A stretch of 64,000 nucleotides of DNA from Bythopirellula sp. (GTDB lineage: Bacteria; Planctomycetota; Planctomycetia; Pirellulales; Lacipirellulaceae), in NCBI GenBank assembly GCA_965216565.1, contig OZ244170.1, forward strand, positions 1,280,001 through 1,344,000, read 5' to 3'. Shown here piece after piece: positions 36,693 to 58,643 of the stretch (position 1 is its first letter; each line of letters starts with the position of its first letter). Made by a program: the position numbers and the translations under genes. The notes beneath the pieces were generated by a model. It ran no database searches, was not told the origin of the DNA, and was given only the letters and a program-made list of their open reading frames with translations.

Positions 36693-36708
36693 TGCAAACG
36701 GCATACCA
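36693..36708 (-). promoter_or_regulatory. sigma54 -24/-12 promoter upstream of yqaE operon
   Basis: Minus strand TGGTAT-GCCGT-TTGCA. Confidence 0.7.
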
Positions 36709-36918: not shown

Positions 36919-37293
36919 ATGGATGAGAAGAGCAAGCCACTGCAATTGATGATTGCCGATGACGATCCACTTTTTCGTCGTGGTGTACGCCAGCTTGTCG
37001 GTCATCTGGACAATCTGTCGCTTTCCGCGGAGGCCGAAGATGGGGTCGAGGCTGTTGAAAAAGCCATCAAACACTCGCCCGACGTGGTGCTTATCGACTA
37101 CCAAATGCCCAGGATGGATGGTGCAGCGGCTGCTCAAGAAATCCTTAAGGCTCGCCCAGAAACAAGGCTAATTGCAATTTCTGCATATTTGGATAAGCAA
37201 TCTGCGGCGGCAATGATCGATGCGGGCGTGATGGCCCTTTTCGCAAAGAATGAGGGGCCATCGAAGTTGCTGGAACTATTGAAGACTCTCTGA
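36919..37293 (+). CDS. Stand-alone response regulator receiver
   Basis: IADDDP, VVLIDYQMPRMDG, ISA, K; no output domain. Confidence 0.85.
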   Translation: MDEKSKPLQLMIADDDPLFRRGVRQLVGHLDNLSLSAEAEDGVEAVEKAIKHSPDVVLIDYQMPRMDGAAAAQEILKARPETRLIAISAYLDKQSAAAMIDAGVMALFAKNEGPSKLLELLKTL

Positions 37294-37330
37294 ACCGTTT
37301 TGCGAAGCTTGACTCTGATTCTTAGCTCGT

Positions 37331-38023: not shown

Positions 38024-38089
38024 GCTTTAAAAATATGAACGTTTTGGCACTTGGCAGAGTGGTGAGATGTCTATAGTTGCTGTAGAGAT

Positions 38090-38104
38090 TAGGGAATTTT
38101 CCTA
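38090..38104. promoter_or_regulatory. Palindrome TAGG-N7-CCTA between divergent regulators
   Basis: TAGGGAATTTTCCTA in the intergenic region; resembles LuxR/NarL-type operators. Confidence 0.35.
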
Positions 38105-38208
38105 CATCATTTTCAGACATCGCCCGACTACATTCAAGCCGCCAGGCGGGTAATAATTTGCAGTAAATATTCGGAAACACTCTCGTGGATAGCTAAAGGG
38201 GACATAAA

Positions 38209-39222: not shown

Positions 39223-39288
39223 ACTTAGCGGATATTGAACACCCACGATTCTGCACTTCCAGGTGCTCACACTCCCGGAGCACACTCT

Positions 39289-40365: not shown

Positions 40366-40449
40366 TTTCTCAGTTCTCATTTCATGCCTCAACCTACCAC
40401 ATTAGCCGCTAGTCTATTGGTGAGATAGAAAGCGCCTCAGACAATATCT

Positions 40450-41847
40450 ATGAACGACTCTGTTGGCACGATTGCCAGATCACTAGTGACCGCCGTCCTG
40501 TCGGTTTTTCTGCTGTCCGCTGTATCTTATGGCCAACCGTCCGATGAACCTGAGGGAGCGACTGAAGAAACAGTACCCGAAGTAACTCAAAACGTCGAGG
40601 TAGAGCCACTGGCGGAAGACTCGGATATTGCTACACGCCTTACTCGAATCCTTGAAGCAACCGAGTGGTTCGTTGCACCGGAAGTGGAAGTTGATGAGGG
40701 CGTCGTTTTTCTAAGAGGAAAGGTAGATAGCGAACCTCACCGGGAGTGGGCTGGCAACTTGGCCGGTAAGACGCAAGACGTGGTCGCCGTTGTCAATCGC
40801 ATCGAAATCATCGAGAAATCGATATGGGATATGTCGCCGGCGTGGAACGAAATCAAAGAACTTGGAAAACAATCCGTACGCAATGCACCTCTATTTGCAG
40901 TTGGCATCTTGCTCATGGCAGCAACCTGGATGGCAACTCGCTGGGCAGTGAAGGCCGCTCGTTCTATTTTCAGCAGCCAATTCAAGAGCCAGCTTCTGCG
41001 AGATGTCGCTGCCCGTGCAATCGCCATACCAGTCTTCTTAATGGGCCTCTACTTGATACTGAAGGTATCCGGGCTAACTCAACTAGCAATGACCGTGATC
41101 GGGGGCACGGGATTGATTGGTCTGGTGATTGGTTTTGCATTTCGCGACATCGCAGAGAACTTTCTTGCCAGCATCTTGATAAGTATTCAGCATCCGTTTG
41201 CTCGTGGAGACAGGATTAGAGTCGCAGAATACGAAGGCTTTGTCCAAAGCGTCAATACACGGTCTACCCTGCTGATGACTCTGGAGGGGAATCACGTCCA
41301 GATCCCAAATTCCAAGATCTACAAAGAAACCATCACCAATTATACAGCGAATCCAAATGCGAGACTCGGCTTTACAATTGGAATCGGATACGAGGACTCT
41401 ATAGCACAAGCCCAGAGCATCGCGCTGGAAGTGCTGCGAGAGCATCCTGCCGTTGTCGATGATCCTGAGTCCTTAGTCTTGGTCGATGCATTGGGCGCCG
41501 CCACTGTGAATTTGCGCGTCTATTTTTGGGCAAACACTACCGAATTCAGCGACATTAAAGTCCGCTCAGCTGTGATTCGCCAGATCAAGAGCGCTTTTGA
41601 AGAACAAGGGATCTCTATGCCAGACGAAGCGCGGGAAGTGGTGTTCCCTTCCGGCGTACCTGTGCGAATGCTTTCAGATGAATCGGAGCAGCAGGCAGTT
41701 GCCAAGCAATCACGATCGGATTCTAGTCGGTCCGAAACGACAGTTCATAGCGCCGAAGGCGACCTGAAGAGCGAGTCGCATGAAATTAGCAAACAAGCCC
41801 AAAAAGCCCGCTCTCCTGAGGCCGGCGAAGATCTTCTTAAGGGTTAA
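40450..41847 (+). CDS. BON-domain mechanosensitive channel (MscS family)
   Basis: Signal peptide, BON (VDEGVVFLRG...VVNRI), GFAFRDIAENF, IPNS. Confidence 0.9.
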   Translation: MNDSVGTIARSLVTAVLSVFLLSAVSYGQPSDEPEGATEETVPEVTQNVEVEPLAEDSDIATRLTRILEATEWFVAPEVEVDEGVVFLRGKVDSEPHREWAGNLAGKTQDVVAVVNRIEIIEKSIWDMSPAWNEIKELGKQSVRNAPLFAVGILLMAATWMATRWAVKAARSIFSSQFKSQLLRDVAARAIAIPVFLMGLYLILKVSGLTQLAMTVIGGTGLIGLVIGFAFRDIAENFLASILISIQHPFARGDRIRVAEYEGFVQSVNTRSTLLMTLEGNHVQIPNSKIYKETITNYTANPNARLGFTIGIGYEDSIAQAQSIALEVLREHPAVVDDPESLVLVDALGAATVNLRVYFWANTTEFSDIKVRSAVIRQIKSAFEEQGISMPDEAREVVFPSGVPVRMLSDESEQQAVAKQSRSDSSRSETTVHSAEGDLKSESHEISKQAQKARSPEAGEDLLKG

Positions 41848-42563: not shown

Positions 42564-45500
42564 GTGAATCTAAAATGGTTTCTCACAACAACTATTCTTG
42601 TGATGGTTGTCATAGGTTGTGAAGGAAATGCTCTCCAGGACGATGTGGAGGTTGCGGGAGAGATGGCCGTCCCTTCTGCGATCGATGCCGACGTTATTCC
42701 ACTTCATAACCGCGTGATTGGACAGATGGGACAGTTCAATTACGATGCCGCCGTGGCGGGCTATCGGCGGCTCGTCGATGCGTTTCCGCAAGCTGATCAA
42801 TTCAAAGTCGACTTGGCAATTGCCCTGCTCAACCGTCGACAGGAAAAGGACCTTTCAGAATCTGGGGAGCTACTCGCCAGCATCTTTGACTCCTCGCCTG
42901 AAGTCTTGCGTGCCAAGTATTGTCAGGCGTTGCTGCTTTTTCACGAAGGAAAAACTAAGGAGGCGAACCAGCTCTTTCGCAGCGTAGCGGAGGCTGATGA
43001 GGAAGATAGTTATGCTGTGTTCTACGTCGGGCAGACTGAGTTCTTATTAGCGAACTTTGAAACGGCCCTCGCGCAATTCGAGGAAGCGGCTCAGATTGAT
43101 CCATACTTGCGGAGTGCCTATTACGGCGCATTTCAGGCTGCCCAGCGATTGAAGCAACGGGATAAAGCGCGGGAGTACTTGAAGCTCTTTCAAAAGCTCG
43201 ATACGAACCCGCGGGCTCGCCTCGCGGAACTCAAATACACTCGGATGGGCCCCAAGGCAGAGGTCAGTCGACCCCGATCGGAAACGCCCCCTCCTGGGAG
43301 ACCGAAAGGTTCCATATTCGCTGCCCCTGCGCCCCTGGAGATTGAGAATTTCAGCGCGACTGACTGGGCCGGCAATGATGCATCGATACCGAGCATCACG
43401 ATTGCGGATTTGAACAGTGATGGGCACAGTGACCTTTTTATTCCCAGAATAGCCGCTACTGAAGAACAGGCATCCACCAATCTAGTATTGCTGGGCTCTG
43501 AGGATGGGTTTCGCCGAGACGTAGATTCACCGCTTGCGAATGTTGGACAGGTGAATACAGCACTTTGGGGAGACTACGATGACGATGGCCTGACTGACGC
43601 TTACCTCTGTCGGAATGGACCGAACCAATTGTGGCGTCAGGATCCCGCGGGGGAATGGCAAAATCTCACCGAAGTGACAAGGATATCGGCCGGTGATAAC
43701 AAAACAATTGATGGAGCCTGTTACGATGCCGATCACGATGGCGATCTAGATTACCTTCTGGTCAACTCCGACGCACCTTTTGAGCTATTGAATAACAACC
43801 GAGACGGCACATTCCGCGCTGTGGCAGATGAGATGGGGATTGAGGGCGACCGTCAGGGGACTCGTTTGATCGTGGCTGATGTGGACAGAGATGACGATGC
43901 GGACCTGATCCTCGTTAACGAGAAACCCCCTCACCAAGTGTATCTGAATGATCGCCTCTGGAGGTATCACCCCGCCTCCGGCTTCGAACAACTGAAAGGG
44001 ACGCCAATTGAGGCGGCCTTGGCTGTTGATGCCGATGTGGATGGGCAGGTGGAAATTTACTCATTCGGGGAAAAAGGTCTGCAACGTTGGCAGCCCGATG
44101 AAGAAGATCAGTGGCAGGCTGAGCAACTAGGGACACAAAAGGGCGAGAAGAATGCTGGCTCAGCCACATTACTAATGCAAGACTTCGACGGCGATACAGA
44201 GCTGGAAATCGCTTTGCAAGTCGGCTCTGGGATTCAGTTGCTTGACCTGGAGGGAAAAGAACTTGAGAGTCTACAGCACAAAAATCTCGTGGGCCCGGTT
44301 GCGGCTCGCGCACAATTGAATGGCCCGGATTTGATTGCATTCAGTTCTCAGGGGCCTCCCTTGCATTGGGCGGCGGGTGAGGGTCGTTTCGATTTTGCAT
44401 TGCTCAGTCTGTCTGGGAAAACCGATAAAGCAGCCGAGATGCGCTCCAACGCGTCAGGAATTGGAGTGCGAGGTGCTGCGCGGATTGGCTCGCGCTGGTC
44501 GCCGGTCTCTCCTTGGCGGCTCCATTCTGGGCCCGGCCAAAGCCTGCAGCCCCTCGCTATCGGATTGGCTGGTGCAGATGAGATCGATTATCTCCAACTT
44601 GTCTGGCCAGATAGTGTTTCTCAAACCGAAACCAATCTCGCTGCGGGACAGATGCATCGGATCGCAGAAACGCAACGTCAGGCAGGTAGTTGCCCTTTAG
44701 TTTTTGTTTGGGATGGCGAGCAATTCCGGTTCGTAGCCGATATCCTTGGAGCGGGTGGGATTGGATTCAATCTTGGTCGAGGTGAATACTACCCTCCGCG
44801 ACCAACGGAGTCACTCATGTTGTCTGCCGACAGTATTCACCCAAGAGATGGCAGGATCGTCATCAAGCTCGGCGAACCGATGGAGGAGATTTGCTACTTC
44901 GATGGAGTTGGCTTGTCAGCGGTCGATTTGCCTGAGGAATACCAAATAGTCCTCGACGAAAGATTTGGGGGGACTGATCCTCAACCCACGGGTGCGTCGG
45001 TAATCTACCGCTCCGAGTTCCTGCCCATCCACGCAACCAATAATCGCGGCGAAGACATCACCACCACATTGGCCAGTGTAGATCGCGTGGCTGCTCCGCT
45101 GAGACGAACCGATCGGCGTTTTATTGGGCTGACGGATCCCCATGCGATCACCCTAACATTCGCCCAACCGCTCAGCGAGTTGGAAAACCCGGTACTTATT
45201 TTCGATGGCTGGGTGGAATATGCGTATTCGCAAACTGCCTTTGCTGCTTGGCAAGCAGGGTTGGAATACCTGGAGCCAACGATTGAAGCCAGGGATGAAA
45301 ATGGCCAATGGCAAATGGTACTGGAAAGGTTTGGCTATATGGCGGGAACCCCTCGACGTTCCAGTGTGCCGATTCCCAAACACAAACTACCCAAGGGTGC
45401 CACAGAGCTTCGCATAAGCAGCAATATGCAGATTTATTGGGATCGCATTTCCGTTGTCGAGTCAATTCACGACTACCAAGTCAACCTCCGAGAACTTCAA

Positions 45501-45926
45501 TTGGAAACGGCAGTAGTTCAGGATGTGGGATTCTCGCAAAGAACACTCTTTGATCAGCGGTATTCCGTCTACAGCTATCAAGATCGGCCTCCTTTCGGAG
45601 ACGCTCGCCATCCACGCGGATTCTACACCTCGTTGGGCGAAGCAAGAGAGCTGGTAAGATCGACAGACGATGCGGTTGCAATTATCGGCCCAGGGGAGGA
45701 GGTGCACTTGGAGTTTGCTCAGGCGAGCAAGAACGTGCCAGACGGTCATCGTCGCTTCTACATTTTGCAGGTCGATGGTTGGTGTAAAGATTCTGATTCG
45801 TTCACCAAAGACTCTCGCAGCGTTGAGCCTCTGCCTACACGCGGTATTCCCCTCTCTGAGGAAGAGCAGGCCCATCGCAATAAGCTACATTCTGAGTATA
45901 ATACGAGATATCGTTCCGGCTGGTAA
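42564..45926 (+). CDS. TPR + FG-GAP/VCBS repeat + ASPIC/UnbV-like lipoprotein (CRTAC1-like, extended C-terminus)
   Basis: Lipobox VIGC, TPRs, repeated DxDxDGxxD motifs, SNASGIG..WPD, GSCP C-terminal domain. Confidence 0.88.
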   Translation: MNLKWFLTTTILVMVVIGCEGNALQDDVEVAGEMAVPSAIDADVIPLHNRVIGQMGQFNYDAAVAGYRRLVDAFPQADQFKVDLAIALLNRRQEKDLSESGELLASIFDSSPEVLRAKYCQALLLFHEGKTKEANQLFRSVAEADEEDSYAVFYVGQTEFLLANFETALAQFEEAAQIDPYLRSAYYGAFQAAQRLKQRDKAREYLKLFQKLDTNPRARLAELKYTRMGPKAEVSRPRSETPPPGRPKGSIFAAPAPLEIENFSATDWAGNDASIPSITIADLNSDGHSDLFIPRIAATEEQASTNLVLLGSEDGFRRDVDSPLANVGQVNTALWGDYDDDGLTDAYLCRNGPNQLWRQDPAGEWQNLTEVTRISAGDNKTIDGACYDADHDGDLDYLLVNSDAPFELLNNNRDGTFRAVADEMGIEGDRQGTRLIVADVDRDDDADLILVNEKPPHQVYLNDRLWRYHPASGFEQLKGTPIEAALAVDADVDGQVEIYSFGEKGLQRWQPDEEDQWQAEQLGTQKGEKNAGSATLLMQDFDGDTELEIALQVGSGIQLLDLEGKELESLQHKNLVGPVAARAQLNGPDLIAFSSQGPPLHWAAGEGRFDFALLSLSGKTDKAAEMRSNASGIGVRGAARIGSRWSPVSPWRLHSGPGQSLQPLAIGLAGADEIDYLQLVWPDSVSQTETNLAAGQMHRIAETQRQAGSCPLVFVWDGEQFRFVADILGAGGIGFNLGRGEYYPPRPTESLMLSADSIHPRDGRIVIKLGEPMEEICYFDGVGLSAVDLPEEYQIVLDERFGGTDPQPTGASVIYRSEFLPIHATNNRGEDITTTLASVDRVAAPLRRTDRRFIGLTDPHAITLTFAQPLSELENPVLIFDGWVEYAYSQTAFAAWQAGLEYLEPTIEARDENGQWQMVLERFGYMAGTPRRSSVPIPKHKLPKGATELRISSNMQIYWDRISVVESIHDYQVNLRELQLETAVVQDVGFSQRTLFDQRYSVYSYQDRPPFGDARHPRGFYTSLGEARELVRSTDDAVAIIGPGEEVHLEFAQASKNVPDGHRRFYILQVDGWCKDSDSFTKDSRSVEPLPTRGIPLSEEEQAHRNKLHSEYNTRYRSGW

Positions 45927-45956
45927 ACGAGTCTCATTGCATCGTCTTCTACTGTT

Positions 45957-48797
45957 ATGGCTTCTGCTCAAACGTCTGCCAGGCGCAAGCCATATGTTCC
46001 TGCAGTAACCCCACGGTTGCGGGTTTTTCTGACGATCGTTTTTGTATTGGTCGCATTGCTGGGCGCCAATTCGATCTATCTCGTGACCGTGACGATCCTC
46101 GAGGCGATTAGCACGAAGACCTACCAGAACTACTTCTACCAATTCATGTTCCTGGGGCACCTCGTACTGGGGATTCTACTGATCGTCCCATTCTTGGTCT
46201 TCGCTATTCCCCACATGCGAAATACCTGGCAGCGGAAGAATCGCCGTGCCGTGTGGATGGGCTATGCCCTGTTTGGGACCTCTCTCCTACTTCTGGTTTC
46301 CGGGCTGTTGCTCACGCGCGTTGGACCTCTAGAGATCAAAGGGCCCACTAAGCGAGCTGTCATTTACTGGTTGCACGTCATTGCCCCTTTGGTTGTCGTC
46401 TGGCTCTATTGGCTACACCGGCTAGCGGGGCCGCGTATCAAGTGGAAGTTGGGGCTCGGGTATCTGTTGTTTGTTGGATTCCTGGGGGCCACGATGATTG
46501 GGTTTCAGAATTCTGACCCGCGAAACTGGTACCAAATCGGATCTCCCGAGGGTACCAAGTACTTTGAGCCTTCCCTTGCCAGAACAGCCAATGGAAAATT
46601 TATTTCAGGGGAAGCGTTGGACAATAACGCCTACTGCCAGGAATGTCATGCCGACGTCCATCAAGGTTGGGCTGAGAGTGCCCACCGATTTAGCTCGTTC
46701 AACAACCCCGCCTACCTGGCAAGTGTGCGCGAGACTCGGCAGTTTTCGCTGACCCGGGATGGGGACGTGCGTCGGTCGAGATTTTGCGCTGGCTGCCACG
46801 ATCCCGTTCCCTTCTTCTCCGGTCAGTTTGATGACCCCAACTTCGACGATGTTCGCAATCCAACCGCCCATGCCGGGATCACCTGCACCGTGTGTCATGC
46901 CATTACCAACATCAATAGCCCGCGCGGCAATGCCGATTACACCATCGAAGAGCCGCTCCACTACCCGTTCGCATATAGCGAAAACGAATTGCTGCAGTGG
47001 CTAAACCGGCAACTGATTAAAGCGAAACCTTCTTTTCACAAAAAGACTTTCCTGAAGCCGTTTCACGAGTCGGCTGAGTTCTGTAGCACTTGTCACAAAG
47101 TACATCTTCCGCAAGAACTCAACGATTACAAATTCTTGCGTGGCCAGAACCACTACGATTCTTTTTTGCTCAGCGGAGTCTCAGGGCATGGTTCGCGAAG
47201 TTTCTACTATCCAAAGCAAGCGGAAGAGAACTGCAACGATTGCCATATGCCTTTAACCGAGTCGGATGACTTTGGGGCACGCATTTACCCAGGAAGCGAC
47301 TCGTTGAGTGTCCACGATCATTTGTTCCCTGGCGGTAACACGGCGCTGCCTCATTGGCGCAAGAATGAGGAAATCGTGAACCGGCAACAGGATATCTTGG
47401 AAGGATCCGTGCGTGTCGACATCTTTGGAGTTCGGGAAGAAGGCAGAATCGACGGCGAGCTGACAGCGCCACTTCGGCCAGAATCAAAGGTATTGGCACC
47501 TGGCTCGACTTACCTGTTCGAAGTCGTGGTCCGAACTTTGAAACTAGGGCATTTATTCACACAGGGAACGGCTGATTCCAACGAAGTCTGGCTGGAAGTT
47601 ACCCTCAAGAGCGGGGATCAGGTCATTGGCCAAAGCGGTAAGATCGACGATTCCTCTCGTGTCGATCCTTGGTCTCATTTCATCAATGTCTTCATGCTCG
47701 ATCGTGAAGGGAATCGGATCGCCCAGCGGAATGCAGAAGACATCTTCGTTCCTCTCTACAATCATCAAATTCCGCCCGGAGCGGGGCAGACAGTTCACTA
47801 TCAGGCAACTATCCCTGCAGAGGCTACTGAACCAATCGTCCTAGAGGTGAAACTCAAGTATCGAAAGTTTGATCGAGACTTTGTTGCTTTCATGGCTAAG
47901 ACACTAGCTCCTGAGGAACTTCCGCGAGGCATCAAGGAAGCCGAAGGCAGGATTGTGAATTCGTTGCCCGTCACCACTTTGGCCAATGATCGTATTGAGT
48001 TTTCTATCGAAGGGCAGGATGAACTGGCCGCAAATCCCGCCCGAAATATTCCTGACTGGCAACGATGGAATGATTACGGCATCGGTTTGTTGCTGAAGGG
48101 TCGGGGGCAGCTTCGCCAGGCGGAGGATGCTTTCACAGAAGTCGAAACGCTAGGTCGGTACGATGGACCGTTGAATCTTGCTCGAGTCTATTTCTCAGAG
48201 GGCCGACTCGACGAAGCGGTCGCTGCCATTGAACGAGCAGTCGAGCACAAGAGTCCCGCTGCACCCCCGTGGACCATGGCCTGGCTAAGCGGAATCGTCA
48301 ATCGGCAACAGGGACATCTTGAGAGTGCAATTAAGAACTTTCAAGCTGTGCTCTCCAAGCCAAACCAGGCGATGCGTTCTCGCAACTTCGACTTCCGATT
48401 AGACTATGAGGTGATCAATCTGCTTGGTCAAACTCTTTTTGAACGTGCTCGGCAACTACGCGGCAAGCAAAACAGTACTCTTCGGCAAGCACTCTTCGAG
48501 CAGGCAGAAGAACAGTTCCTGACCACTTTGGTGATCGATCCGGAGAATGTCGACGCGCACTACGGCTTGAACCGACTTTATACGGCAATGGGCAAGAGTG
48601 AGCTTTCACTGAAACACCAGCAGCTTCACGAGAAGTATCGTCCTGACGATAATGCGCGCGACCAGGCTGTAAGAGCCGCCCGGCAGAAGTACCCCGCTGC
48701 AAACCATGCGGCTGAAGCGGTAGTGATTTACGATCTGCAAAGGCCGAGTGAGCAGCTTGAGAGAGAGGCTGGCGTTGGTAATTCCGCCAGCAAATAA
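45957..48797 (+). CDS. Membrane-bound multiheme cytochrome c (5 CxxCH) with TPR tail
   Basis: N-terminal TMs with His; CQECH, CAGCH, CTVCH, CSTCH, CNDCH; TPRs. Confidence 0.9.
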   Translation: MASAQTSARRKPYVPAVTPRLRVFLTIVFVLVALLGANSIYLVTVTILEAISTKTYQNYFYQFMFLGHLVLGILLIVPFLVFAIPHMRNTWQRKNRRAVWMGYALFGTSLLLLVSGLLLTRVGPLEIKGPTKRAVIYWLHVIAPLVVVWLYWLHRLAGPRIKWKLGLGYLLFVGFLGATMIGFQNSDPRNWYQIGSPEGTKYFEPSLARTANGKFISGEALDNNAYCQECHADVHQGWAESAHRFSSFNNPAYLASVRETRQFSLTRDGDVRRSRFCAGCHDPVPFFSGQFDDPNFDDVRNPTAHAGITCTVCHAITNINSPRGNADYTIEEPLHYPFAYSENELLQWLNRQLIKAKPSFHKKTFLKPFHESAEFCSTCHKVHLPQELNDYKFLRGQNHYDSFLLSGVSGHGSRSFYYPKQAEENCNDCHMPLTESDDFGARIYPGSDSLSVHDHLFPGGNTALPHWRKNEEIVNRQQDILEGSVRVDIFGVREEGRIDGELTAPLRPESKVLAPGSTYLFEVVVRTLKLGHLFTQGTADSNEVWLEVTLKSGDQVIGQSGKIDDSSRVDPWSHFINVFMLDREGNRIAQRNAEDIFVPLYNHQIPPGAGQTVHYQATIPAEATEPIVLEVKLKYRKFDRDFVAFMAKTLAPEELPRGIKEAEGRIVNSLPVTTLANDRIEFSIEGQDELAANPARNIPDWQRWNDYGIGLLLKGRGQLRQAEDAFTEVETLGRYDGPLNLARVYFSEGRLDEAVAAIERAVEHKSPAAPPWTMAWLSGIVNRQQGHLESAIKNFQAVLSKPNQAMRSRNFDFRLDYEVINLLGQTLFERARQLRGKQNSTLRQALFEQAEEQFLTTLVIDPENVDAHYGLNRLYTAMGKSELSLKHQQLHEKYRPDDNARDQAVRAARQKYPAANHAAEAVVIYDLQRPSEQLEREAGVGNSASK

Positions 48798-48824
48798 CAT
48801 CTATTAATAACTGAGGGCAATGCG

Positions 48825-50660
48825 TTGATTCCCCCACAAGAACCCGACGATACGACCCAAGACGATGCCATCATCGGCCAGGCTTTCAAGTGGTCGCTGA
48901 TTGTTTTCGTATCGGTAGCTGCTGTGGTAGGAGCAATCGTTTGGTTTTATCGCGCGGGAAGTGAACCTGTTGAGGAAAGTCAACCGGAGGTCTCGTTACC
49001 GGAAGTACGAAGCCAGGCGATTGAGACTGTCCCCGATTTGCCATTCACAAATGTTACTGACGCAGCGGGCATCACTTTTGTTCACGAAAACGGTGCTGTG
49101 GGTGAAAAGCTCCTTCCAGAAACCATGGGGGGAGGAGTGGCTTTCTTGGACTACGACAGTGACGGCGATCAAGACCTTCTCTTGGTGAACTCTTCGGTGT
49201 GGGATGACGTCTCGCCTGACAACCGGCCAACAACTGCCCTGTTCGAAAACGATGGTCTCGGACAATTCACCGATGTTAGCGTTCAGGCTGGGATTGATGT
49301 GAATTGCTATGGCATGGGGGTCGCTGTTGGCGACTACGATAATGACGGCGATCCAGACGTATTTATCTCTGCCGTGGGATATAACATTCTGCTGCGAAAC
49401 GATAACGCTGTTTTTGTTGATGTCTCAAAGGAAGCTAGAGTGCAAGGCGAGGAAGATCGCTGGAGCACCAGTAGTGGCTGGCTAGACTACGATAACGATG
49501 GCGATTTGGACTTGCTGGTGGGCAACTATGTGCAATGGTCCGCCGAAATTGATCGTGCGCAAGATTTTCGCTTGACCGGCATCGGTAGAGCCTATGGCCC
49601 CCCTTTTTCCTTTCAGGGCACATTTCCCTACCTCTATCGCAACGAAGGCGATGGCACTTTCACTGATGTATCTACACCCAGCGGCATCCAGGTTAAAAAC
49701 GAGGCCACGGGCGTACCGCTCGCAAAGACCTTGGGGGTCGCGATTGTCGATGTGAACCACGATGGCTGGGTCGACATCGTACTTGCCAACGATACCGTCC
49801 AGAATCAATTGCTGGTCAATCAGCAAGATGGAACTTTCGTTGACGATGGTATCGCCTCTGGAATTGCTTTCGATGCCAGCGGTAAGGCACGCGGTGCAAT
49901 GGGAATCGACGTCGGTTGCTTCCGAAACGACGATTGTCTGGCGATCGCCATTGGTAACTTTGCAAACGAGATGAGCGCACTTTATGTCTCAGACGGAACG
50001 GACGTCGTGTTTACTGATGACGCCATTCCGAGTGGACTTGGCCCTCAAACTCGTAGCGACCTCTGCTTCGGACTATTCTTCTTTGACGTCGATTTGGATG
50101 GACGGCTAGATCTATTCGCGGCCAATGGGCATCTAGAGGACGACATCAATCTGGTGCAAAAAAGTCAGTACTACCAGCAGCCTCCCAAGTTGTTCTGGAA
50201 CGCCGGATTCAGCGGCGATACTGAGTTTGTAGCCGTATCCAAATCAAACATGGCAGACCTGGCCAGTGCCTTGGTGGGCAGAGGCGCGGCCTATGCCGAC
50301 ATCGATGCCGACGGAGATCTAGATATCGTCATTACACAAGTCGATGGTCCTCCCGCTGTGTTGAGAAACGATCAACAAACGAACCATCATTTTTTGCGAC
50401 TAAAGCTAGTCGGTGAAACTTGCAATCGCGATGCAGTCGGCGCCTGGGTCGAAGTGCGGCAAGGAGAACAGACTCTAAAGCGTCGAGTGATGCCCACGCG
50501 CAGCTACTTGTCACAGGTGGAATTGCCGGTGACAATTGGGCTGGGCAATGATCCAAGCGTTGATGAAGTACGCGTGCATTGGCCTGGCGGAAACATGCAG
50601 ACCGTAGAGGATATTGTCTTGGACGGCTTAACAATCGTGAGACAGCAGACCGATGAATAA
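48825..50660 (+). CDS. CRTAC1 family protein (FG-GAP + ASPIC/UnbV)
   Basis: ETMGGGVAFLDYDSDGD, multiple DxDxDG repeats, NRDAVGA, SYLSQ, WPGG. Confidence 0.92.
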   Translation: MIPPQEPDDTTQDDAIIGQAFKWSLIVFVSVAAVVGAIVWFYRAGSEPVEESQPEVSLPEVRSQAIETVPDLPFTNVTDAAGITFVHENGAVGEKLLPETMGGGVAFLDYDSDGDQDLLLVNSSVWDDVSPDNRPTTALFENDGLGQFTDVSVQAGIDVNCYGMGVAVGDYDNDGDPDVFISAVGYNILLRNDNAVFVDVSKEARVQGEEDRWSTSSGWLDYDNDGDLDLLVGNYVQWSAEIDRAQDFRLTGIGRAYGPPFSFQGTFPYLYRNEGDGTFTDVSTPSGIQVKNEATGVPLAKTLGVAIVDVNHDGWVDIVLANDTVQNQLLVNQQDGTFVDDGIASGIAFDASGKARGAMGIDVGCFRNDDCLAIAIGNFANEMSALYVSDGTDVVFTDDAIPSGLGPQTRSDLCFGLFFFDVDLDGRLDLFAANGHLEDDINLVQKSQYYQQPPKLFWNAGFSGDTEFVAVSKSNMADLASALVGRGAAYADIDADGDLDIVITQVDGPPAVLRNDQQTNHHFLRLKLVGETCNRDAVGAWVEVRQGEQTLKRRVMPTRSYLSQVELPVTIGLGNDPSVDEVRVHWPGGNMQTVEDIVLDGLTIVRQQTDE

Positions 50661-51624
50661 GCTCATTGAAGATCGTTTTGCAGAGAAGACGACCGCTCAC
50701 ATTCGAGAATTGGCGAAGTCGAGCCCGGCCATGCGGGCTATGTATCTATTCGATGAGGAGCACGAAAATCACCCTGCAAACCGCGATGTCGATTTGTTTC
50801 TCGAAAAGCAACTTACGCAGACCAAAGGGGTCGTCTACAAATATCCTGGGCGAGTGATCATTCTGCTCAGCTATACCTGCGCTGCGAATTGTCGATACTG
50901 CGAGCGGCAAGATCGCGTTGGAGTGGGTCTAGACGCACAAGGTCGGCTCACAGAAGCAGAAATCGAACGGGCGGCTACATTTGTTGCCGAACACGAAGAG
51001 ATTTCCGAAGTTATCTTTAGCGGGGGCGATCCACTAACTCACCCGACGGGCCTGGCCCTGGCGGCGAAGCTTATCGCAGACATTCCTCACGTTCGCATTC
51101 TACGCGTCCACACGCGTTATCCGTTGCAGTTGCCCGAGAGGGTCGATTTCGAATTGATTGAGCAGCTCGAGGCATTGCCACCGACCTTTTATCTTAGCCT
51201 CCACATCGATCACCCTGACGAACTCACCCCAGAGACGGAGCTTGTGATCGAGAGACTGCGGAGAACGGGTGCAATCTTGATCTGTCAGTCCGTATTTCTG
51301 AAGGGTGTTAACGACAACGTAGAAACACTAGCCAGGCTGTTTACTCGCCTCGCGGAATTGGGCGTGCGGCCGTATTACATCTATCATTGTCATCCAATCG
51401 CCACGACGATGCGTTTTGTGATGCCACTTGCCGATGAGATTGCCATCATGAGCCGGCTTCGCGAGCGGATTAGTGGCATCGCTTGCCCTCAGCACATATT
51501 TGAAATGAGGCATACGACAGGCAAGTTGGTTGTACCCACAGATCATTGGGACGTAAACTTGGCGGAAGTAAGAGATTTTCAAGCGAACACGATCGATGTT
51601 GATAAAAGTGCCTTAGAGGTCTAG
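50653..51624 (+). CDS. KamA-family radical SAM aminomutase-like protein
   Basis: YPGRV, CAANCRYCER, SGGDPL, HIDHP, QSVFLKGVND, VRPYYIY, GK PLP lysine. Confidence 0.88.
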   Translation: MNKLIEDRFAEKTTAHIRELAKSSPAMRAMYLFDEEHENHPANRDVDLFLEKQLTQTKGVVYKYPGRVIILLSYTCAANCRYCERQDRVGVGLDAQGRLTEAEIERAATFVAEHEEISEVIFSGGDPLTHPTGLALAAKLIADIPHVRILRVHTRYPLQLPERVDFELIEQLEALPPTFYLSLHIDHPDELTPETELVIERLRRTGAILICQSVFLKGVNDNVETLARLFTRLAELGVRPYYIYHCHPIATTMRFVMPLADEIAIMSRLRERISGIACPQHIFEMRHTTGKLVVPTDHWDVNLAEVRDFQANTIDVDKSALEV

Positions 51625-51628
51625 CCCA

Positions 51629-52162
51629 TTGATCCAGCCTGATAACGGACTCATCGATTCTTGCTCACACCAAGAGTGTGGGTACGCGTGTTGTGACTTT
51701 GGCGCCAATAATTATATCGCACTTTATCCAGGCGAAATCGCAGAGGCGATTGATCGTGGCCAGTCACTGAGCCATCTCGATTACGTTGCCGATGGACGTG
51801 GGGGCCACCGAGCCGTTTGTCGCGCCAAGGACCGAAGTGATTGCGACGGCGGCTATAAGCCCCTCGATTGTTCCTCGTACCCTCTTTTCCCGGTAGTGGG
51901 AGAAACCGGAATTCTGGAACTTGGGCTCAAGGGGGAGAAGTGTCCGTTACAGCACTTTCATCTCCGCGATCACGGTGCCTGGGTCCTTCGGAAATGGCGA
52001 GAATTATTGGAGACCGTCCCCATGCTCGGAGAGTGGATCCGGCGTACAGATTTAGTGGGATACATCACCTGGAGCGAATCCCCTGAGGTGGCCAGCGCCC
52101 ATGCCTTAAGCAAAGATCCAGACGATGCGCTTGTGAAAGAGTGCTCGTCGGAGTCAAGTTGA
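51629..52162 (+). CDS. Cys-rich protein, YkgJ/CxxCxxCC-like metal or Fe-S cluster protein
   Basis: CSHQECGYACC, C-x7-C, KPLDCSSYP, KCPL. Confidence 0.7.
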   Translation: MIQPDNGLIDSCSHQECGYACCDFGANNYIALYPGEIAEAIDRGQSLSHLDYVADGRGGHRAVCRAKDRSDCDGGYKPLDCSSYPLFPVVGETGILELGLKGEKCPLQHFHLRDHGAWVLRKWRELLETVPMLGEWIRRTDLVGYITWSESPEVASAHALSKDPDDALVKECSSESS

Positions 52163-52278
52163 CTATCCTCTTCTTTTCCAACATAGACGCTCCAAAAGCT
52201 TCGGGTTAAAGTGAGGGGAGCGCTACTTAGCCACTTCTTCGAGCCTTATTTTAACTGTCGATCCACCCTCACTGGTTC

Positions 52279-54096
52279 ATGGAAACTTCAATGCATTGTT
52301 GCCAACGACTTGTTTTGCTGCTTACGCTCTCAGCCGCGATAGTGGGGTGCCAGCAAAACGAAGGCCGCAAGCCTGAACTTGACTTGCCTATCGAAAAGAC
52401 AGCCAGCAAGGATCAGCAATCAGAGCAAGAAACAACAACGGAGACGCCTCCCGCCCAATCGGAAGGCAGCAAACCAGTTGATTCGAAGGATGAAGCACTG
52501 CTGATTGAAGTCACCGAACAACTTGGCCTCGATAGCAATATAGAACGCTGGCCGGACGGTGCTCACCTCACTCCTGAAATCACACCCGGTGGCGTCGCCC
52601 TCTTGGATTTCGATCAAGATGGCGATCTTGACATCTACCAGATTCGGCATGGCAAACCTGCCGAGATGCCGGGTGCCTTCCAGGATCCAGCGCCCAACCG
52701 TCTCTTTCGCCAGGAACCGGACGGCACCTTTAGCGAAGTCCCAGAGGCAGCCGGTTTAGCAGATCCCGGCTATGGGCATGGCTGCGCCGTTGGCGATATC
52801 GACAACGACGGAGACGTAGATGTGTTTGTAACAAATTATGGAGCCAATCGACTTTATCAGAATGAGGGAGGGACGTTCCGCGACATCACTGAGCAAGCCG
52901 GCATCGAGGGCGAACATTGGAGTTCGGCCTCCGCGTTTTTTGATTACGACCGCGACGGGCTACTCGATCTGTTTGTTGTGCACTTCGGAGTGTTCGACCC
53001 CACTCGCCGTTGCGATGCAGCGGGAAAACCGGGAACCGCGGATTATTGCGGACCCCACTTATTCCAAGGCGTGACCGACCAACTTTACCGCAACAATGGT
53101 GACGGCACATTCACCGACATTACCGCGGCGGTTGGTATTACAACGGCAGCACGCGGCTGGGGAGTAATTTGTGCTGATTTGAACGCCGATGGTTGGGCCG
53201 ACATTTACGTGTGCAACGACGAAGAGCCGAATCAGTTGTGGATCAATGACAAAGAGGGAGGATTCTACGATGAAGCCATGCTCTCCGGAGTGGCAGTCAA
53301 TGGATTTGGACGCGTGGAAGCAAGTATGGGGGTCACAGTAGGTGACGTGAATGCAGATGGGAAATTTGATCTATTTATGACACACGTTGCCAGCGAGACA
53401 AACACGCTCTATACGCTAACTGGCGAAGACTTGTACGACGATGAGACCTCTATGGCAGGAATGGGGTCAGTCGACTTGCCCTACACCGGATGGGGTTGTG
53501 GTCTGTTAGACATTGATCACGACGCAGACCTCGACCTGGCAATCGGAAATGGTCGCGTCGCTATCGGGCCTGTTCTGAAGGGAGCCGATTTGGGCCCCTT
53601 CTGGAATCGCTATGCGGAGCCGAACTTGCTTTTTCTTAATGATGGATCGGGAAGCTTCTCCAACGTCAGCAATCAGTCCGGTTCGTTTGCTGGCGTTCCC
53701 AGGATGACGCGTGGTCTTGCCTTTGGCGATTTAGATAATGACGGCGATATCGATTTGGTCACCAATAGCATCGATAACCACCTAAACGTATTTCGGAACG
53801 AAGCCCCTCAGCCTGGCACTCACTGGCTTCAACTCAGGCTTATGACAGGCAAACGCGACGCCATTGGTGCCCGAGTGCGACTGACTACCGACTCGGGTGA
53901 ACAAGTACGCTTCATGTTGCGAGCTTACAGTTATCTTGCCAGCAACGATCCCCGTGTCCACTTCGGATTAGGGCAGAACCAGAAAATTAAGTCGCTGGAG
54001 ATTCTTTGGCCCGACGGTGAACAAGAGCGATTTTCGCCGACCGAGATCGATCAAGTGGTGACTCTTAACCAAGGTCTAGGTGAGCCAATTCCTTAG
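52279..54096 (+). CDS. CRTAC1 family lipoprotein (FG-GAP + ASPIC/UnbV)
   Basis: Lipobox IVGC, GGVALLDFDQDGD, RDAIGARV, SYLAS, HFGLG, WPDG. Confidence 0.92.
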   Translation: METSMHCCQRLVLLLTLSAAIVGCQQNEGRKPELDLPIEKTASKDQQSEQETTTETPPAQSEGSKPVDSKDEALLIEVTEQLGLDSNIERWPDGAHLTPEITPGGVALLDFDQDGDLDIYQIRHGKPAEMPGAFQDPAPNRLFRQEPDGTFSEVPEAAGLADPGYGHGCAVGDIDNDGDVDVFVTNYGANRLYQNEGGTFRDITEQAGIEGEHWSSASAFFDYDRDGLLDLFVVHFGVFDPTRRCDAAGKPGTADYCGPHLFQGVTDQLYRNNGDGTFTDITAAVGITTAARGWGVICADLNADGWADIYVCNDEEPNQLWINDKEGGFYDEAMLSGVAVNGFGRVEASMGVTVGDVNADGKFDLFMTHVASETNTLYTLTGEDLYDDETSMAGMGSVDLPYTGWGCGLLDIDHDADLDLAIGNGRVAIGPVLKGADLGPFWNRYAEPNLLFLNDGSGSFSNVSNQSGSFAGVPRMTRGLAFGDLDNDGDIDLVTNSIDNHLNVFRNEAPQPGTHWLQLRLMTGKRDAIGARVRLTTDSGEQVRFMLRAYSYLASNDPRVHFGLGQNQKIKSLEILWPDGEQERFSPTEIDQVVTLNQGLGEPIP

Positions 54097-54205
54097 AGCG
54101 TTTAGCATGTGTTCTTGGGATCGTCAGCGGAAAGACAGCGACTATAATGGAGGAAGCGTGGTTCTTTCCTACTTTTCTTGAGCTCAGAGGCGATTCACGA
54201 CTTCT

Positions 54206-55417
54206 ATGCTATTGCGATCAATCCAGCTAATACTGCTTTCTGTTTCTTTTTTGTTGGTAGCCTTTCAAGCTCCTTTGTCGATCTCGGCGCCTCTCGAAAC
54301 GACGCCGAACCAGTCGGACTCAAAGAGCGAACCGAGGGCAATAACGGAATTGCACCAACAGGCAATTGCTCTCTACCGCGAGGGAGAAATTGCAAAGGCC
54401 GAAACACTGTTTCGCAAGATTCTGAAGAAGGATCCCAGATTTGTCCCGGCCCGATCCGATCTTGGAGCCCTGCTCGTCGGCCAGGGGCGTATGCAGGAAG
54501 GCATGGCTCATTACCAACTTGTTGCCCTCAAGTTGCTCCCAGACAATCCGACTGCTCGTTACAAATATGCACTAGTACTCTTGAAAATGCGTCGCGACGC
54601 CGAAGCAGTCAAAGAGCTGAAGAACACTCTTCAACTAGATCCGGAGTATGAGGTCGCACGACGAAATCTACTCAAGGTCCTGCTCCAGAATAATGAGTTC
54701 ATGCAGGCCTCTCAGATTTCAGCTGCGGGAGTCGAGCTTCATCCGGAAGATGGATCGTTTCACAATGACCATGGTGTCGTACTTATGAAGCTAGGGAAGT
54801 TTCCTGAAGCAGCAAGAAGCTTTCGCAAGGCCGTTGAGCTGAATGCAGAGCATCCCGATGCCCACTACAATCTGGGACTTTCGCTGAACGAGCAGTGGAA
54901 GTTGGAGGAATCAGCCGAGCAACTGCGTGCAGCCCTCAAGTTACAACCCGACTATATTGATGCCCTCTACAATCTGGGGCTCGTGTACGCTCGTATGGGA
55001 GACGTCGAGAATGCACGTGATTCATTGGGGAAAGCGATCGAACTAAAGCCTAATTACTATTTGGCTCACCATGAGCTAGGTATGTTGGCTATGCGAGAGG
55101 AGGATTATCGCACCGCTGTGAGACATTTTACCGAGGCACTGCGCCATCAGCCTGGATCTCGGAAAAGCCAGTATCAATTAGGACTCGTGATGATGAAAAT
55201 GGGCAAACCGAAGTTGGCCATACCACAGTTCCAGGGGGTATTGAATCGCTCCGGAAGCAATGCCGACGCACGTTTCCAAATGGGACTCGCTTTGGACCAG
55301 GTTGGACGCCCACAGGATGCTCTGGCTCAATTCCGCGAGGCGCTCTGGCTACGACCAGACTGGAAAGAGGTGGAGGAAAGAATCTCGCAGATTGAGAACG
55401 GGACTGAAGATCAATAA
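54206..55417 (+). CDS. Secreted TPR repeat protein
   Basis: Signal peptide and about 9 TPRs (AHYNLG, ALYNLG etc.). Confidence 0.88.
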   Translation: MLLRSIQLILLSVSFLLVAFQAPLSISAPLETTPNQSDSKSEPRAITELHQQAIALYREGEIAKAETLFRKILKKDPRFVPARSDLGALLVGQGRMQEGMAHYQLVALKLLPDNPTARYKYALVLLKMRRDAEAVKELKNTLQLDPEYEVARRNLLKVLLQNNEFMQASQISAAGVELHPEDGSFHNDHGVVLMKLGKFPEAARSFRKAVELNAEHPDAHYNLGLSLNEQWKLEESAEQLRAALKLQPDYIDALYNLGLVYARMGDVENARDSLGKAIELKPNYYLAHHELGMLAMREEDYRTAVRHFTEALRHQPGSRKSQYQLGLVMMKMGKPKLAIPQFQGVLNRSGSNADARFQMGLALDQVGRPQDALAQFREALWLRPDWKEVEERISQIENGTEDQ

Positions 55418-55951: not shown

Positions 55952-57082
55952 CTAGGGAAGCTGCGCGACTTCATTTCCCGCCTTGGTAGACAGACTTCGA
56001 TAGAGCTGATGGTCGATTCCTTCTTGGAGAAATCGCACAGACGCGTCAGCCATGGCAAAATTTCCGCCTCCCGGATGAAGGCTTCGAAAACCTCTCACGT
56101 TCACCCATTCCAGCCCCGATGAGATTTCCTCGAGCGAAAGGGGAGAGAAGTAATTGAACTGCATATTGCAACTCGCCCAATCGCCTTCAGAGAGATAGGC
56201 CGTCGAATGAGGATCCTGTTCGACTACCGATTCGCCTACCATAAATGTGCTGCTTAAACCGTCGGTGATACGCTTAAACGGAATTGGGTCGTAATAGCTG
56301 AATTTCCAGAATAGTCCGTTGCAGCCCAGGCTCTCAAAGCAGCCAGGACTGGTGCCCGAAGATGAGTCATTCCAGAGCCCATCTGGGAATGGAAAAATAT
56401 GTTCGAGAATCGTAGTATCACCTGCGACGCCTTTATAATTGGTTACTGCTGAGACAACATTGCGCGTGGCAGATTTGTCTAACCAGGGATACATACCCAC
56501 CCTGGGGAAAGCCGAGGCGTCTGACGGACAGGTGAGCACCGGAAGCTGCCTGGTCAATTCCTCGCGAACTTCTGGCCGTCCCATGCCTCGGCCGTTCCTA
56601 CTGGTGGCCAAGAAGTTCATGTTTGAAGAACTGGGATCATCGAATCCAGGCTTCATGGCTTCGTAGAACGCACTTTGTTCCAGTTGAGGCAAAATCGCCA
56701 CGATCCAGCCGCGACCATTGAGATTGTTCTCTCGCTTATACTCTGACGGATCAGGATTCGATCCCAGAGCCGGATCAGCATAGAACTCACCACCGAACCT
56801 ACCAGTGGTGCTGTCTGCCGCTGTAACGCCATAAGGGAGATGGCCGTTGCTGTTATGGTAGTTGTGGATGGCCAGAGCGACGTTCTTGACGTTGTTTGCG
56901 CACGACATCCGGCGTGCGGCTTCTCGCGCGGCCTGCACCGCAGGCAGGAGAAGCGCCACCAGCACACCAATAATGGCGATAACCACTAACAACTCAACTA
57001 GTGTAAAACCCTTCCGCGAGCTGCCCCATCGTGGAAGGTGTAGATTTCTTTTCACAGTAAATGCACTCTCCAACCAGCTCAT
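55952..57082 (-). CDS. DUF1559 prepilin-type N-terminal cleavage/methylation protein
   Basis: GFTLVELLVVIAIIGVLVALLLPAVQAAREAARR, ITDGLSST, H-x9-D (HPGGGNFAMADASV). Confidence 0.95.
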   Translation of the reverse strand: MSWLESAFTVKRNLHLPRWGSSRKGFTLVELLVVIAIIGVLVALLLPAVQAAREAARRMSCANNVKNVALAIHNYHNSNGHLPYGVTAADSTTGRFGGEFYADPALGSNPDPSEYKRENNLNGRGWIVAILPQLEQSAFYEAMKPGFDDPSSSNMNFLATSRNGRGMGRPEVREELTRQLPVLTCPSDASAFPRVGMYPWLDKSATRNVVSAVTNYKGVAGDTTILEHIFPFPDGLWNDSSSGTSPGCFESLGCNGLFWKFSYYDPIPFKRITDGLSSTFMVGESVVEQDPHSTAYLSEGDWASCNMQFNYFSPLSLEEISSGLEWVNVRGFRSLHPGGGNFAMADASVRFLQEGIDHQLYRSLSTKAGNEVAQLP

Positions 57083-57197
57083 AACTGGTAATCTCTTGCG
57101 TGGTTTGGTTTTTCCAACCTGAATTACTAGCCCCAGTTTTTGGCAGAAATAGATGCGGCGGCTATTGAAAAAAACAATAGAAGGAGCCAATCTGCGT

Positions 57198-58643
57198 TTA
57201 GGTGCGGTACCTTCTACCCATTGTGCACATCACCATACCGAAGGCTATAACAATGCATGAGGGTTCCGGAACAGCATTGAGCAACGGTACCGGAATAAGC
57301 GCTATATCGTTTCCGCCTGCTCCATACACGTAAGTAATTGCCCGCCCGCCACTATTCGGAACGAAAGCACCTTCCGGCAGTCCCTCGAATGAGCCGTTGA
57401 TTGCGGTAAGACTTTGATTGTCCACCAGCAGGATATCTCCGAGAGGCGGAGCGTTTGTAGTCAGATCAACAACTAGGCTCGCAGAACCTTCAGACAATCC
57501 GTAGTTGGCTTCATAGTCAGATAGGTCACCCACGTTAGGGTCGGTTTGCCACAACAGGAAATCAAGGCCAGTGACTGTGCCGTCGAGGTCAAAGTCGCCG
57601 GCAATGCCTAGATCATTCAGCCAAACACTGTCAGTTACCTCGATGGGGGTGACTCCACCTGAGTCAGAGGTGAAGCTAAGAGTTCCTTTAGCAATCGTTT
57701 CATTACCAGCTCCTGCGCTGTTGTAGCCCATTTGCAAAGAGGTGGCAATTATTGATGCAGTGCTGCCAGTGATGCTCACCACGCCGGTCGCGTCATCTCG
57801 GCCTACACGGAAGTTTTCGATATCTAGCTGAGCGGTGCCACTTATGTTAAGAGCCCCTTTGGCGCCCCCATTCTGCCCGACATTAAGTTCTGAAAAGACG
57901 TTTAAGCTGCCTCCAGAAATATTGTATTCTCCCTCGGCATCATTTTCGCCGATGTTGAACCAATTAGCGACTTCTACTGTTCCACCGGTCTGATCGAGCT
58001 GGCCGTAACCACCATTGTTGTGGCCCAAGTTCACGGCACCGACTTCCATTAGAGCGTTACCGCTCACCGTTATGTATCCTTCATTGCGGTTGTTCGGGTC
58101 GGGGTGAGGTCCACCTTCAGTACCCACAAGCAACGCAGGAGTGTTATTGAATATTGCACTTCCGGACAAGTTATATCGACCGATTGACGGATTCGATGCC
58201 GAACCATTCGCTCCAATAAATGCCCAGTTGCCACTGGTATTGAGAGTACCGGCCGAGTGATTTAGTGTGCCGTCTCCGCCGTCTCCATTTCCAATACGTA
58301 AGTCGCGAAATGTATTTGCAACTGCAACAGGGCCATTTAAGTCTACAACCGCAGGATTTTGGTAGGCTTGGCCATCTCCGCCGTTATTGGGATCAGAAGT
58401 TCCGACTTGGCCAATGACCGCATCATCGACTTCCGTTGCGCTGCCTGGGAGCGGATTGGTTCCAGGTATCGTGTTATTCTCCCAGTTATTGGGATCATTG
58501 AAGTCGGTAGTACCTGCTCCGCCGTTGAAGACTATCGCCTCTGTTGTGGTTGGAAACAAAAGCAGCAAAGTACAACCAAAGCATGCAGACAAAAAGCACT
58601 GCTTTACTGAATATTTGAAAACACGCAGATTCATTTGATTCAC
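57198..58643 (-). CDS. Secreted Gly/Asn-rich beta-solenoid-like PEP-CTERM protein with dockerin-like insert
   Basis: Signal peptide, G-x-Y-N-x-S-G-G repeats, GDFDLDGTVTGLDFLLWQ, VPEP + TM + RRYR. Confidence 0.88.
   Translation of the reverse strand: MNQMNLRVFKYSVKQCFLSACFGCTLLLLFPTTTEAIVFNGGAGTTDFNDPNNWENNTIPGTNPLPGSATEVDDAVIGQVGTSDPNNGGDGQAYQNPAVVDLNGPVAVANTFRDLRIGNGDGGDGTLNHSAGTLNTSGNWAFIGANGSASNPSIGRYNLSGSAIFNNTPALLVGTEGGPHPDPNNRNEGYITVSGNALMEVGAVNLGHNNGGYGQLDQTGGTVEVANWFNIGENDAEGEYNISGGSLNVFSELNVGQNGGAKGALNISGTAQLDIENFRVGRDDATGVVSITGSTASIIATSLQMGYNSAGAGNETIAKGTLSFTSDSGGVTPIEVTDSVWLNDLGIAGDFDLDGTVTGLDFLLWQTDPNVGDLSDYEANYGLSEGSASLVVDLTTNAPPLGDILLVDNQSLTAINGSFEGLPEGAFVPNSGGRAITYVYGAGGNDIALIPVPLLNAVPEPSCIVIAFGMVMCTMGRRYRT

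Follow-up and report, generated by a model that had tools for sequence, protein, structure and literature searches.

A separate KamA-family clade with a replacement at a lysine-binding position of lysine 2,3-aminomutase, and its member in a Bythopirellula gene island

Introduction

To our knowledge, the established substrates of the 2,3-aminomutases that combine radical S-adenosylmethionine (SAM) chemistry with pyridoxal phosphate (PLP) are lysine, glutamate and arginine only. The best sequence match among known structures to the protein considered here is the lysine 2,3-aminomutase (LAM) of Clostridium subterminale. An excerpt of the SFLD paper (PMC3965090) states that two aspartate residues bind lysine in all LAM family members and that the same two positions are Lys and Asn in glutamate 2,3-aminomutase. 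In LAM numbering these are Asp293 and Asp330.

Here we describe a gene for a KamA-like protein in a stretch of 64,000 nucleotides from Bythopirellula sp. (assembly GCA_965216565.1, contig OZ244170.1, positions 1,280,001 to 1,344,000), which we call the window. An earlier reading of the sequence alone had proposed that this gene encodes a 2,3-aminomutase of new specificity. We find that the protein is part of a KamA-family clade that is separate and uncharacterised and in which Asp is never found at the Asp293 position, and we lean towards the view that it acts on an amino acid other than lysine.

Fold, catalytic motifs and family assignment

A phmmer search of all PDB chains matched the KamA-like protein to LAM only (2a5h, E 1.1e-37), with residues 55-294 of the query aligned to residues 104-340 of the 416 in LAM. 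The alignment pairs 'yyiyhch' with 'yyiyqcd' and 'ifemrhttgk' with 'vvdapggggk', which places His247 at Asp293, Glu284 at Asp330 and Lys291 at the PLP lysine Lys337. The sequence-only reading had named both replacements, and had allowed that a proper alignment might restore the two aspartates; in the alignment to 2a5h neither is conserved. The CxxxCxxC motif, the Arg that follows it (CER) and the PLP lysine (TTGK) are retained, as it had reported (Table 1). The SGGDP motif is also present and, like Lys291, is invariant in the family alignments. In LAM, Arg134 is the residue that holds the substrate carboxylate, and we take Arg85 as its counterpart; LAM also has a Gly-rich loop ahead of its PLP lysine, and a Zn site.

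Compared with LAM, some 49 residues are missing from the N-terminus of the protein and some 47 from its C-terminus, in agreement with the earlier description of a 323-amino-acid protein that lacks both extensions, and its sequence has no Cys beyond Lys291. We rejected short length as a special feature, the models of EpmB and TIGR03822 having 321 positions too.

Membership was judged by the curated cut-offs of NCBIfam hidden Markov models; Pfam gives a generic Radical_SAM domain only. The best-scoring NCBIfam model is TIGR03822 (AblA_like_2), at 221 bits against a cut-off of 396.25. Scores also fall below the cut-offs for EpmB (TIGR03821, 187.8 against 369.3 bits), arginine 2,3-aminomutase (TIGR04468, 186.6 against 600 bits, a family from which the protein is set apart by score alone), general KamA (TIGR00238, 180.5 against 199.2 bits), glutamate 2,3-aminomutase (TIGR04368, 171 against 650 bits) and LAM (TIGR03820, 159.3 against 525.4 bits).

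The features that the protein shares with the KamA family are the C76/C80/C83 motif, K291 under LAM K337 and a LAM-type fold. An AlphaFold model built with 51 relatives has a pLDDT of 90.8. Its best structural match in the PDB is again 2a5h (E 8.8e-23, TMq 0.82, 315 columns), followed by viperin-like enzymes at TMq 0.53. The fold and catalytic motifs are LAM-like, and the sequence lies outside every curated family.

A clade in which Asp293 is replaced

We identified 644 homologues of the KamA-like protein in a word-indexed search, the nearest 85% identical, and the gene is therefore real. In an exhaustive search of representatives at 50% identity, scores drop through 401, 332, 305, 251 and 239 bits and then reach a plateau at about 180 bits. 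We aligned 257 sequences: the window protein, the 119 other best of the 644 homologues, 128 representatives, the EpmB protein of the same genome and eight proteins from the loci described below. The 128 were taken from the 149 other best representatives, with 21 left out as shorter than 270 or longer than 520 amino acids.

At the positions of LAM Asp293, Asp330 and Lys337, 92 of the 257 sequences read Asp/Asp/Lys, 50 His/Glu/Lys (the window protein among them), 49 Gln/Asp/Lys, 19 Gln/Glu/Lys and 19 Asp/Glu/Lys. Less frequent signatures are Ala/Glu/Lys (six sequences), Met/Glu/Lys (four), Glu/Asp/Lys (four) and Lys/Asn/Lys (one), and a further 13 signatures occur singly.

A FastTree phylogeny places 130 of these sequences in one clade (support 1.0) on a stem of 0.54 substitutions per site. 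Asp is never found at the 293 position in this clade, which takes in all the Gln, His, Ala, Met and Ile forms and one of the four Glu/Asp/Lys sequences. Its three successive sister groups are Asp/Asp, save one Ser/Asp sequence. The 50 His/Glu/Lys sequences are monophyletic within it (support 1.0), and all 50 carry Arg286; the rest of the clade has Gln or Pro there, as do Asp-type sequences. The clade reaches across Planctomycetota, Actinobacteria and Proteobacteria.

Three motifs of the clade are absent from LAM, EpmB and glutamate 2,3-aminomutase-like sequences: CERQDRVGVGLD straight after the cluster cysteines, HIDHPDEL, and PQH...GK..VPxxHW. All 50 His-type sequences, and 67-68 of the 68 Gln-type ones, conserve Glu84, Arg85, Gln86, Asp87 and Arg88. 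The KamA-like protein is thus a member of a separate, uncharacterised KamA-family clade. A literature search found no paper on the clade, its proteobacterial operon or the planctomycete gene island, a weak blank given that phrases with '2,3-' are not searchable.

Residues that could set specificity and the proposed reaction

To read the two substrate-side positions in named families, we labelled reference sequences by the NCBIfam cut-offs, which gave six EpmB proteins, seven TIGR03822 proteins and the EpmB of the same genome. Asp occupies the 293 position in all 14. Five of the six EpmB proteins, and the EpmB of the same genome, read Asp/Glu/Lys. Glu at the 330 position is thus the norm in EpmB, which uses lysine, and we rejected Glu284 as a diagnostic change; the informative changes are therefore His247 and Arg286. 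Of the double replacement proposed from sequence, one half stands, His247 being invariant in the set of 50, while Glu at 330 is no swap by itself.

On balance, and with modest confidence, we favour a LAM-type radical SAM/PLP aminomutase that acts on an amino acid other than lysine; we infer both the chemistry and the exclusion of lysine. The earlier proposal of a new specificity gains from the Asp293-to-His change in a monophyletic group of 50, from the substrate-specific NCBIfam models, all missed by wide margins, and from the separate EpmB-efp-EpmA set described below. It is tempered by the acidic residue at 330, with which lysine use would still be compatible.

The enzyme would be cytoplasmic and would depend on a [4Fe-4S] cluster, SAM and PLP. 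A free alpha-amino acid would form an aldimine with PLP and displace Lys291, and the mechanism would most likely be that of LAM. Arg85 would hold the substrate carboxylate. The cluster on Cys76, Cys80 and Cys83 would cleave SAM to give a 5'-deoxyadenosyl radical, and the amino group would move from C2 to C3. In place of the Asp/Asp pair of LAM, His247, Glu284 and Arg286 would recognise the side chain, so that the product would be a beta-amino acid other than beta-lysine, made from a polar or charged substrate. Ornithine or diaminobutyrate (for a tighter pocket) and an arginine-type substrate (from GntD/GntE-like neighbours of relatives) are guesses only.

Several observations temper this reading or weigh against it. 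First, the residue change is not peculiar to the window gene and extends over the whole 130-sequence clade and three phyla. Second, an acidic residue at 330 is kept in 129 of the 130 members, and a basic substrate, lysine included, could therefore still be used. Third, clade members differ at the 293 position (Gln, His, Ala, Met, Ile, Glu), which may not be what chiefly determines their specificity. Fourth, the Gly-rich stretch before the PLP lysine changes from GGGGK in LAM to RHTTGK here, and PLP binding could differ given this altered stretch. Finally, the planctomycete neighbours of the gene encode proteins located outside the cytoplasm, for which a beta-amino acid has no obvious use.

Lysine-related enzymes elsewhere in the genome

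The same genome encodes an EpmB-type KamA protein of 343 amino acids (C1:3599521-3600465; 304 bits to the general KamA model) that carries YYLHQLD and VQELPGEASK in the two substrate-side stretches. Its gene divergently adjoins efp (region C1:3598021-3601965) and is followed by an RlmN-like radical SAM gene. An EpmA/GenX gene (335.7 bits against a cut-off of 286.9; C1:3571269-3572177) lies about 27 kb from the EpmB gene. The gene in the window is thus a second paralogue that differs from the EpmB gene. It has no efp, epmA or ablB neighbour among the genes annotated from 35 to 58.6 kb of the window, as the sequence-only reading had noted, and a search of the genome for an AblB-type acetyltransferase was negative. 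A weak third match to the KamA family (53.6 and 26.9 bits; C1:2084281-2085240) lies within a 488-amino-acid open frame.

These genes bear on a rival account, in which the KamA-like protein acts as a conventional lysine 2,3-aminomutase: Glu284 and His247 would hold the epsilon-amine, and the beta-lysine formed would go into an osmolyte or a secondary product. We consider this unlikely. A dedicated EpmB is already present, the genome search found no AblB-type acetyltransferase, the score to the LAM model is 159 bits where 525 are required, and Asp293 is replaced in 130 of 130 clade members, as opposed to Asp in 14 of 14 labelled EpmB and TIGR03822 proteins. The case for lysine draws on the public naming of close relatives as 'L-lysine 2,3-aminomutase', the acidic residue at 330 combined with the handling of lysine by EpmB with Asp/Glu, the conserved Arg85 and Lys291, and the presence of MscS-type channels 9-15 kb upstream.

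Gene neighbourhoods of relatives in Proteobacteria and Actinobacteria

Relatives of the KamA-like protein in Actinobacteria and Proteobacteria are 49-58% identical to it. We read gene contexts from 18 loci. A phosphoglycerate-dehydrogenase-like gene lies directly 5' of the KamA-like gene in all ten proteobacterial loci, which also encode an ATP-grasp enzyme (six of ten), a 404-amino-acid protein without a family match (seven of ten) and, in four of ten, a second KamA-like protein, which is very divergent and has about 450 amino acids. One Pantoea locus additionally encodes a GntD/VioC-like hydroxylase and a major facilitator superfamily (MFS) exporter. Actinobacterial loci encode HemL/GntE-like aminotransferases, acyl-CoA-ligase-like enzymes and a nonribosomal peptide synthetase (NRPS) condensation domain.

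These loci have the appearance of small-molecule pathways in which a free, unusual amino acid would be used. The ATP-grasp, NRPS, ligase and aminotransferase neighbours, which lie beside relatives of 50-58% identity, fit the supply of a free amino-acid building block, a point for the favoured aminomutase reading.

The Rahnella locus (L008:3635-11755) illustrates the proteobacterial layout. It encodes a LysR regulator, the phosphoglycerate-dehydrogenase-like protein, a Gln/Asp KamA-like protein, the ATP-grasp enzyme and the 404-amino-acid protein, and the operon continues with the second KamA-like protein (about 450 amino acids), which scores 132 bits against TIGR00238, and with a metallo-beta-lactamase-fold lactonase-like protein. 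The same layout occurs in L009, L010 and L012 and resembles an undescribed small-peptide pathway.

The phosphoglycerate-dehydrogenase-like partner in ten of ten proteobacterial loci is also one of the points in favour of a different account, in which the LAM fold serves another radical reaction with no 2,3-amino shift, such as a PLP-radical rearrangement or a reaction on a non-amino-acid substrate, with PLP optional. The protein scores below even the general KamA cut-off (180.5 against 199.2 bits), the clade has its own motifs (CERQDRVGVGLD, HIDHPDEL, PQH...VPxxHW), and changes are seen in the Gly-rich loop ahead of the PLP lysine. Yet the 130-sequence clade keeps both this lysine and the carboxylate Arg without exception, and we found no positive evidence for any other chemistry; this account, too, we regard as improbable.

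An eight-cysteine partner protein

In the window, the KamA-like gene is followed directly by a gene for a small protein with eight invariant cysteines (C12, C17, C21, C22, C64, C72, C81 and C105). We identified 13 relatives of this partner in a large protein collection, all of them unnamed or hypothetical. The partner gene lies directly 3' of the KamA-like gene in three of four independent loci (the window, L001 and L002) and not in L003; a further locus, L027, is the same contig as L001, hence the count of four. Judging from equal contig sizes, five further partner relatives appear to lie on the same contigs as His/Glu proteins. The partner is absent from all proteobacterial and actinobacterial loci examined.

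None of the 13 members has a Pfam match up to E 10. The model of the partner has a pLDDT of 78.8, a Foldseek search found no PDB match at E <= 0.001, and the best score of a wide VIA-align search was Z 2.6. Some observations point towards YkgJ (PF03692, CxxCxxCC). Features of the partner in the ESM Atlas score 0.93 to YkgJ-named clusters. An hhalign comparison with YkgJ of the same genome aligns collinear cysteines at non-significant E values of 0.061 (92 columns) and 0.057 (15 columns). Like YkgJ, the partner has two adjacent cysteines (CC) close to its N-terminus and, further along, a [KR]P..C..[YW]P[LF] stretch. It differs from YkgJ in having no Pfam match, where the two true PF03692 members of the same genome score 54.9 and 33.7 bits, and in the spacing of its first Cys group (C-x4-C-x3-CC). 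The partner is thus an orphan eight-cysteine protein that is possibly a remote relative of YkgJ.

The cysteines suggest that the partner probably binds a metal or an Fe-S cluster, and as a co-inherited accessory it may be an electron donor or structural helper. A complex prediction for the KamA-like protein and the partner gave a score of 0.00, which is no verdict and weighs neither way.

The gene island and its inheritance

The two genes sit within a same-strand run of seven genes (42564 to 55417), with the KamA-like gene fourth and the partner fifth (Table 1). As read from translations, all proteins of this island except these two begin with a signal peptide, a lipoprotein-type signal or membrane helices. 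In all four independent loci the gene immediately 5' of the KamA-like gene is of the FG-GAP/ASPIC kind, and a cytochrome-TPR gene lies two genes 5' in three of them. Promoter and terminator counts are no higher than in shuffled sequence.

Table 1. Coordinates, in the window, of the KamA-like gene, its motifs, the partner gene and the other genes of the island.
Feature	Position	Strand	Remarks
TPR + FG-GAP + ASPIC lipoprotein-like protein, 1120 aa	42564..45926	+	
Membrane protein, 946 aa, with multihaem cytochrome c and TPR parts	45957..48797	+	five CxxCH read from translation
FG-GAP/ASPIC-UnbV protein, N-terminal membrane anchor	48825..50660	+	stop overlaps KamA-like start by 8 nt
KamA-like radical SAM/PLP protein, His/Glu/Arg subclade	50653..51624	+	open reading frame, 323 aa; Pfam Radical_SAM match
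CxxxCxxC cluster motif CAANCRYCER (Cys76, Cys80, Cys83, then Glu84-Arg85)	50878..50907	+	opens clade motif CERQDRVGVGLD
YYIYHCH stretch	51373..51393	+	
His247 at LAM Asp293 position	51391..51393	+	LAM alignment
IFEMRHTTGK stretch	51496..51525	+	
Glu284-Met285-Arg286	51502..51510	+	Glu284 at LAM Asp330 position; Arg286 subclade-specific
Lys291 at position of LAM PLP lysine Lys337	51523..51525	+	LAM alignment; invariant in family alignments
Partner protein, 177 aa, eight invariant Cys	51629..52162	+	TTG start 4 nt past KamA-like stop
Second FG-GAP/ASPIC-UnbV protein, lipoprotein-like signal	52279..54096	+	
Secreted TPR protein, 403 aa	54206..55417	+	relative after partner in L002

We searched 61 related genomes and found a KamA-family match in 34 at E <= 1e-40. 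Identity exceeds 70% in the window's own genome (G000) and in G316 only; the remaining matches are 33-40% identical. Among 27 genomes of the genus, the cytochrome-TPR protein (E <= 1e-100) is likewise confined to these two, and in G316 it is encoded on the same contig as the KamA-like gene. The two-genome pattern and the shared contig indicate that the island is accessory, patchy and inherited as a block. Block inheritance supports, and does not prove, a functional link between the gene pair and the island.

Among 301 genomes sampled from the phylum, two others have a match at E <= 1e-60; both proteins are 40-41% identical, of the Asp/Asp type and encoded beside a Ddl-like ATP-grasp gene. These genes, from another planctomycete family (319 amino acids; L025:1459-3464 and L026:471-3719), overlap the ATP-grasp gene. 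In L026, the ATP-grasp gene is followed by a 408-amino-acid open reading frame that by eye resembles a DmpA-type aminopeptidase.

Just 5' of the island, the window encodes two MscS-type channels (one with a BON domain), a sigma-54 activator, a histidine kinase and a LuxR-type response regulator (35044-41847). Beyond its 3' end, on the reverse strand (55952-58643), are a DUF1559 protein with an N-terminal methylation motif and, beside it, a 481-amino-acid protein without a Pfam family whose C-terminus resembles a PEP-CTERM sorting signal (VPEPS, a hydrophobic stretch, RR).

One extension of the aminomutase reading links the pair to these neighbours. The two proteins could form a cytoplasmic module, with the partner as an Fe-S or Zn accessory, that makes a new beta-amino acid consumed by or attached to the envelope island. 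We offer this as a quite unlikely proposal. If true, the module would tie radical SAM aminomutase chemistry to an extracytoplasmic planctomycete system.

That the KamA-like and eight-cysteine proteins jointly modify one of the island's own peptides or proteins in place of a free amino acid, perhaps at the free N-terminal residue of an FG-GAP/ASPIC protein, would accord with the 8-nt overlap of the KamA-like start with the upstream FG-GAP/ASPIC stop, the same upstream arrangement in four of four independent loci and the co-inheritance of the island in two of 27 genus genomes, but is very improbable given the conserved carboxylate-binding Arg, the small-molecule contexts of the wider clade and the export signals that, in translation, mark the neighbours and are missing from the pair. 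We know of no KamA-family member that acts on proteins.

Implications and comparison with known systems

The clade is well separated, spans three phyla, is changed at a specificity position and carries its own motifs, which makes it a clear target in the search for a new beta-amino-acid-forming activity. Such activities are of use in natural-product biosynthesis and biocatalysis. The outcome on substrate would correct the public 'lysine 2,3-aminomutase' names of proteins in the 130-sequence clade. The planctomycete subclade raises the further questions of what role the orphan eight-cysteine partner plays and why the pair travels with an envelope island.

The KamA-like protein resembles C. subterminale LAM (2a5h; KamA/AblA) in its CxxxCxxC motif with an Arg past the third Cys, in its PLP lysine and in its YYIY stretch. 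It differs in sequence (Asp293 to His, Asp330 to Glu, Pro332 to Arg and GGGGK to HTTGK) and lacks the Cys-rich C-terminal part of LAM. EpmB (YjeK), which acts in EF-P beta-lysylation, is similar in length and likewise has Glu at the 330 position. In contrast to the KamA-like protein, EpmB has Asp at 293 (six of six labelled proteins and that of the same genome), and the KamA-like gene does not lie beside efp. TIGR03822 (AblA_like_2) proteins are also of similar length; the seven aligned members above the cut-off have Asp at 293 and fall outside the 130-sequence clade. Glutamate 2,3-aminomutase, as described in the excerpt of PMC3965090, provides a precedent in which both Asp positions changed together with the substrate. 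Its signature is Lys/Asn (a P0199-like sequence), whereas that of the KamA-like protein is His/Glu.

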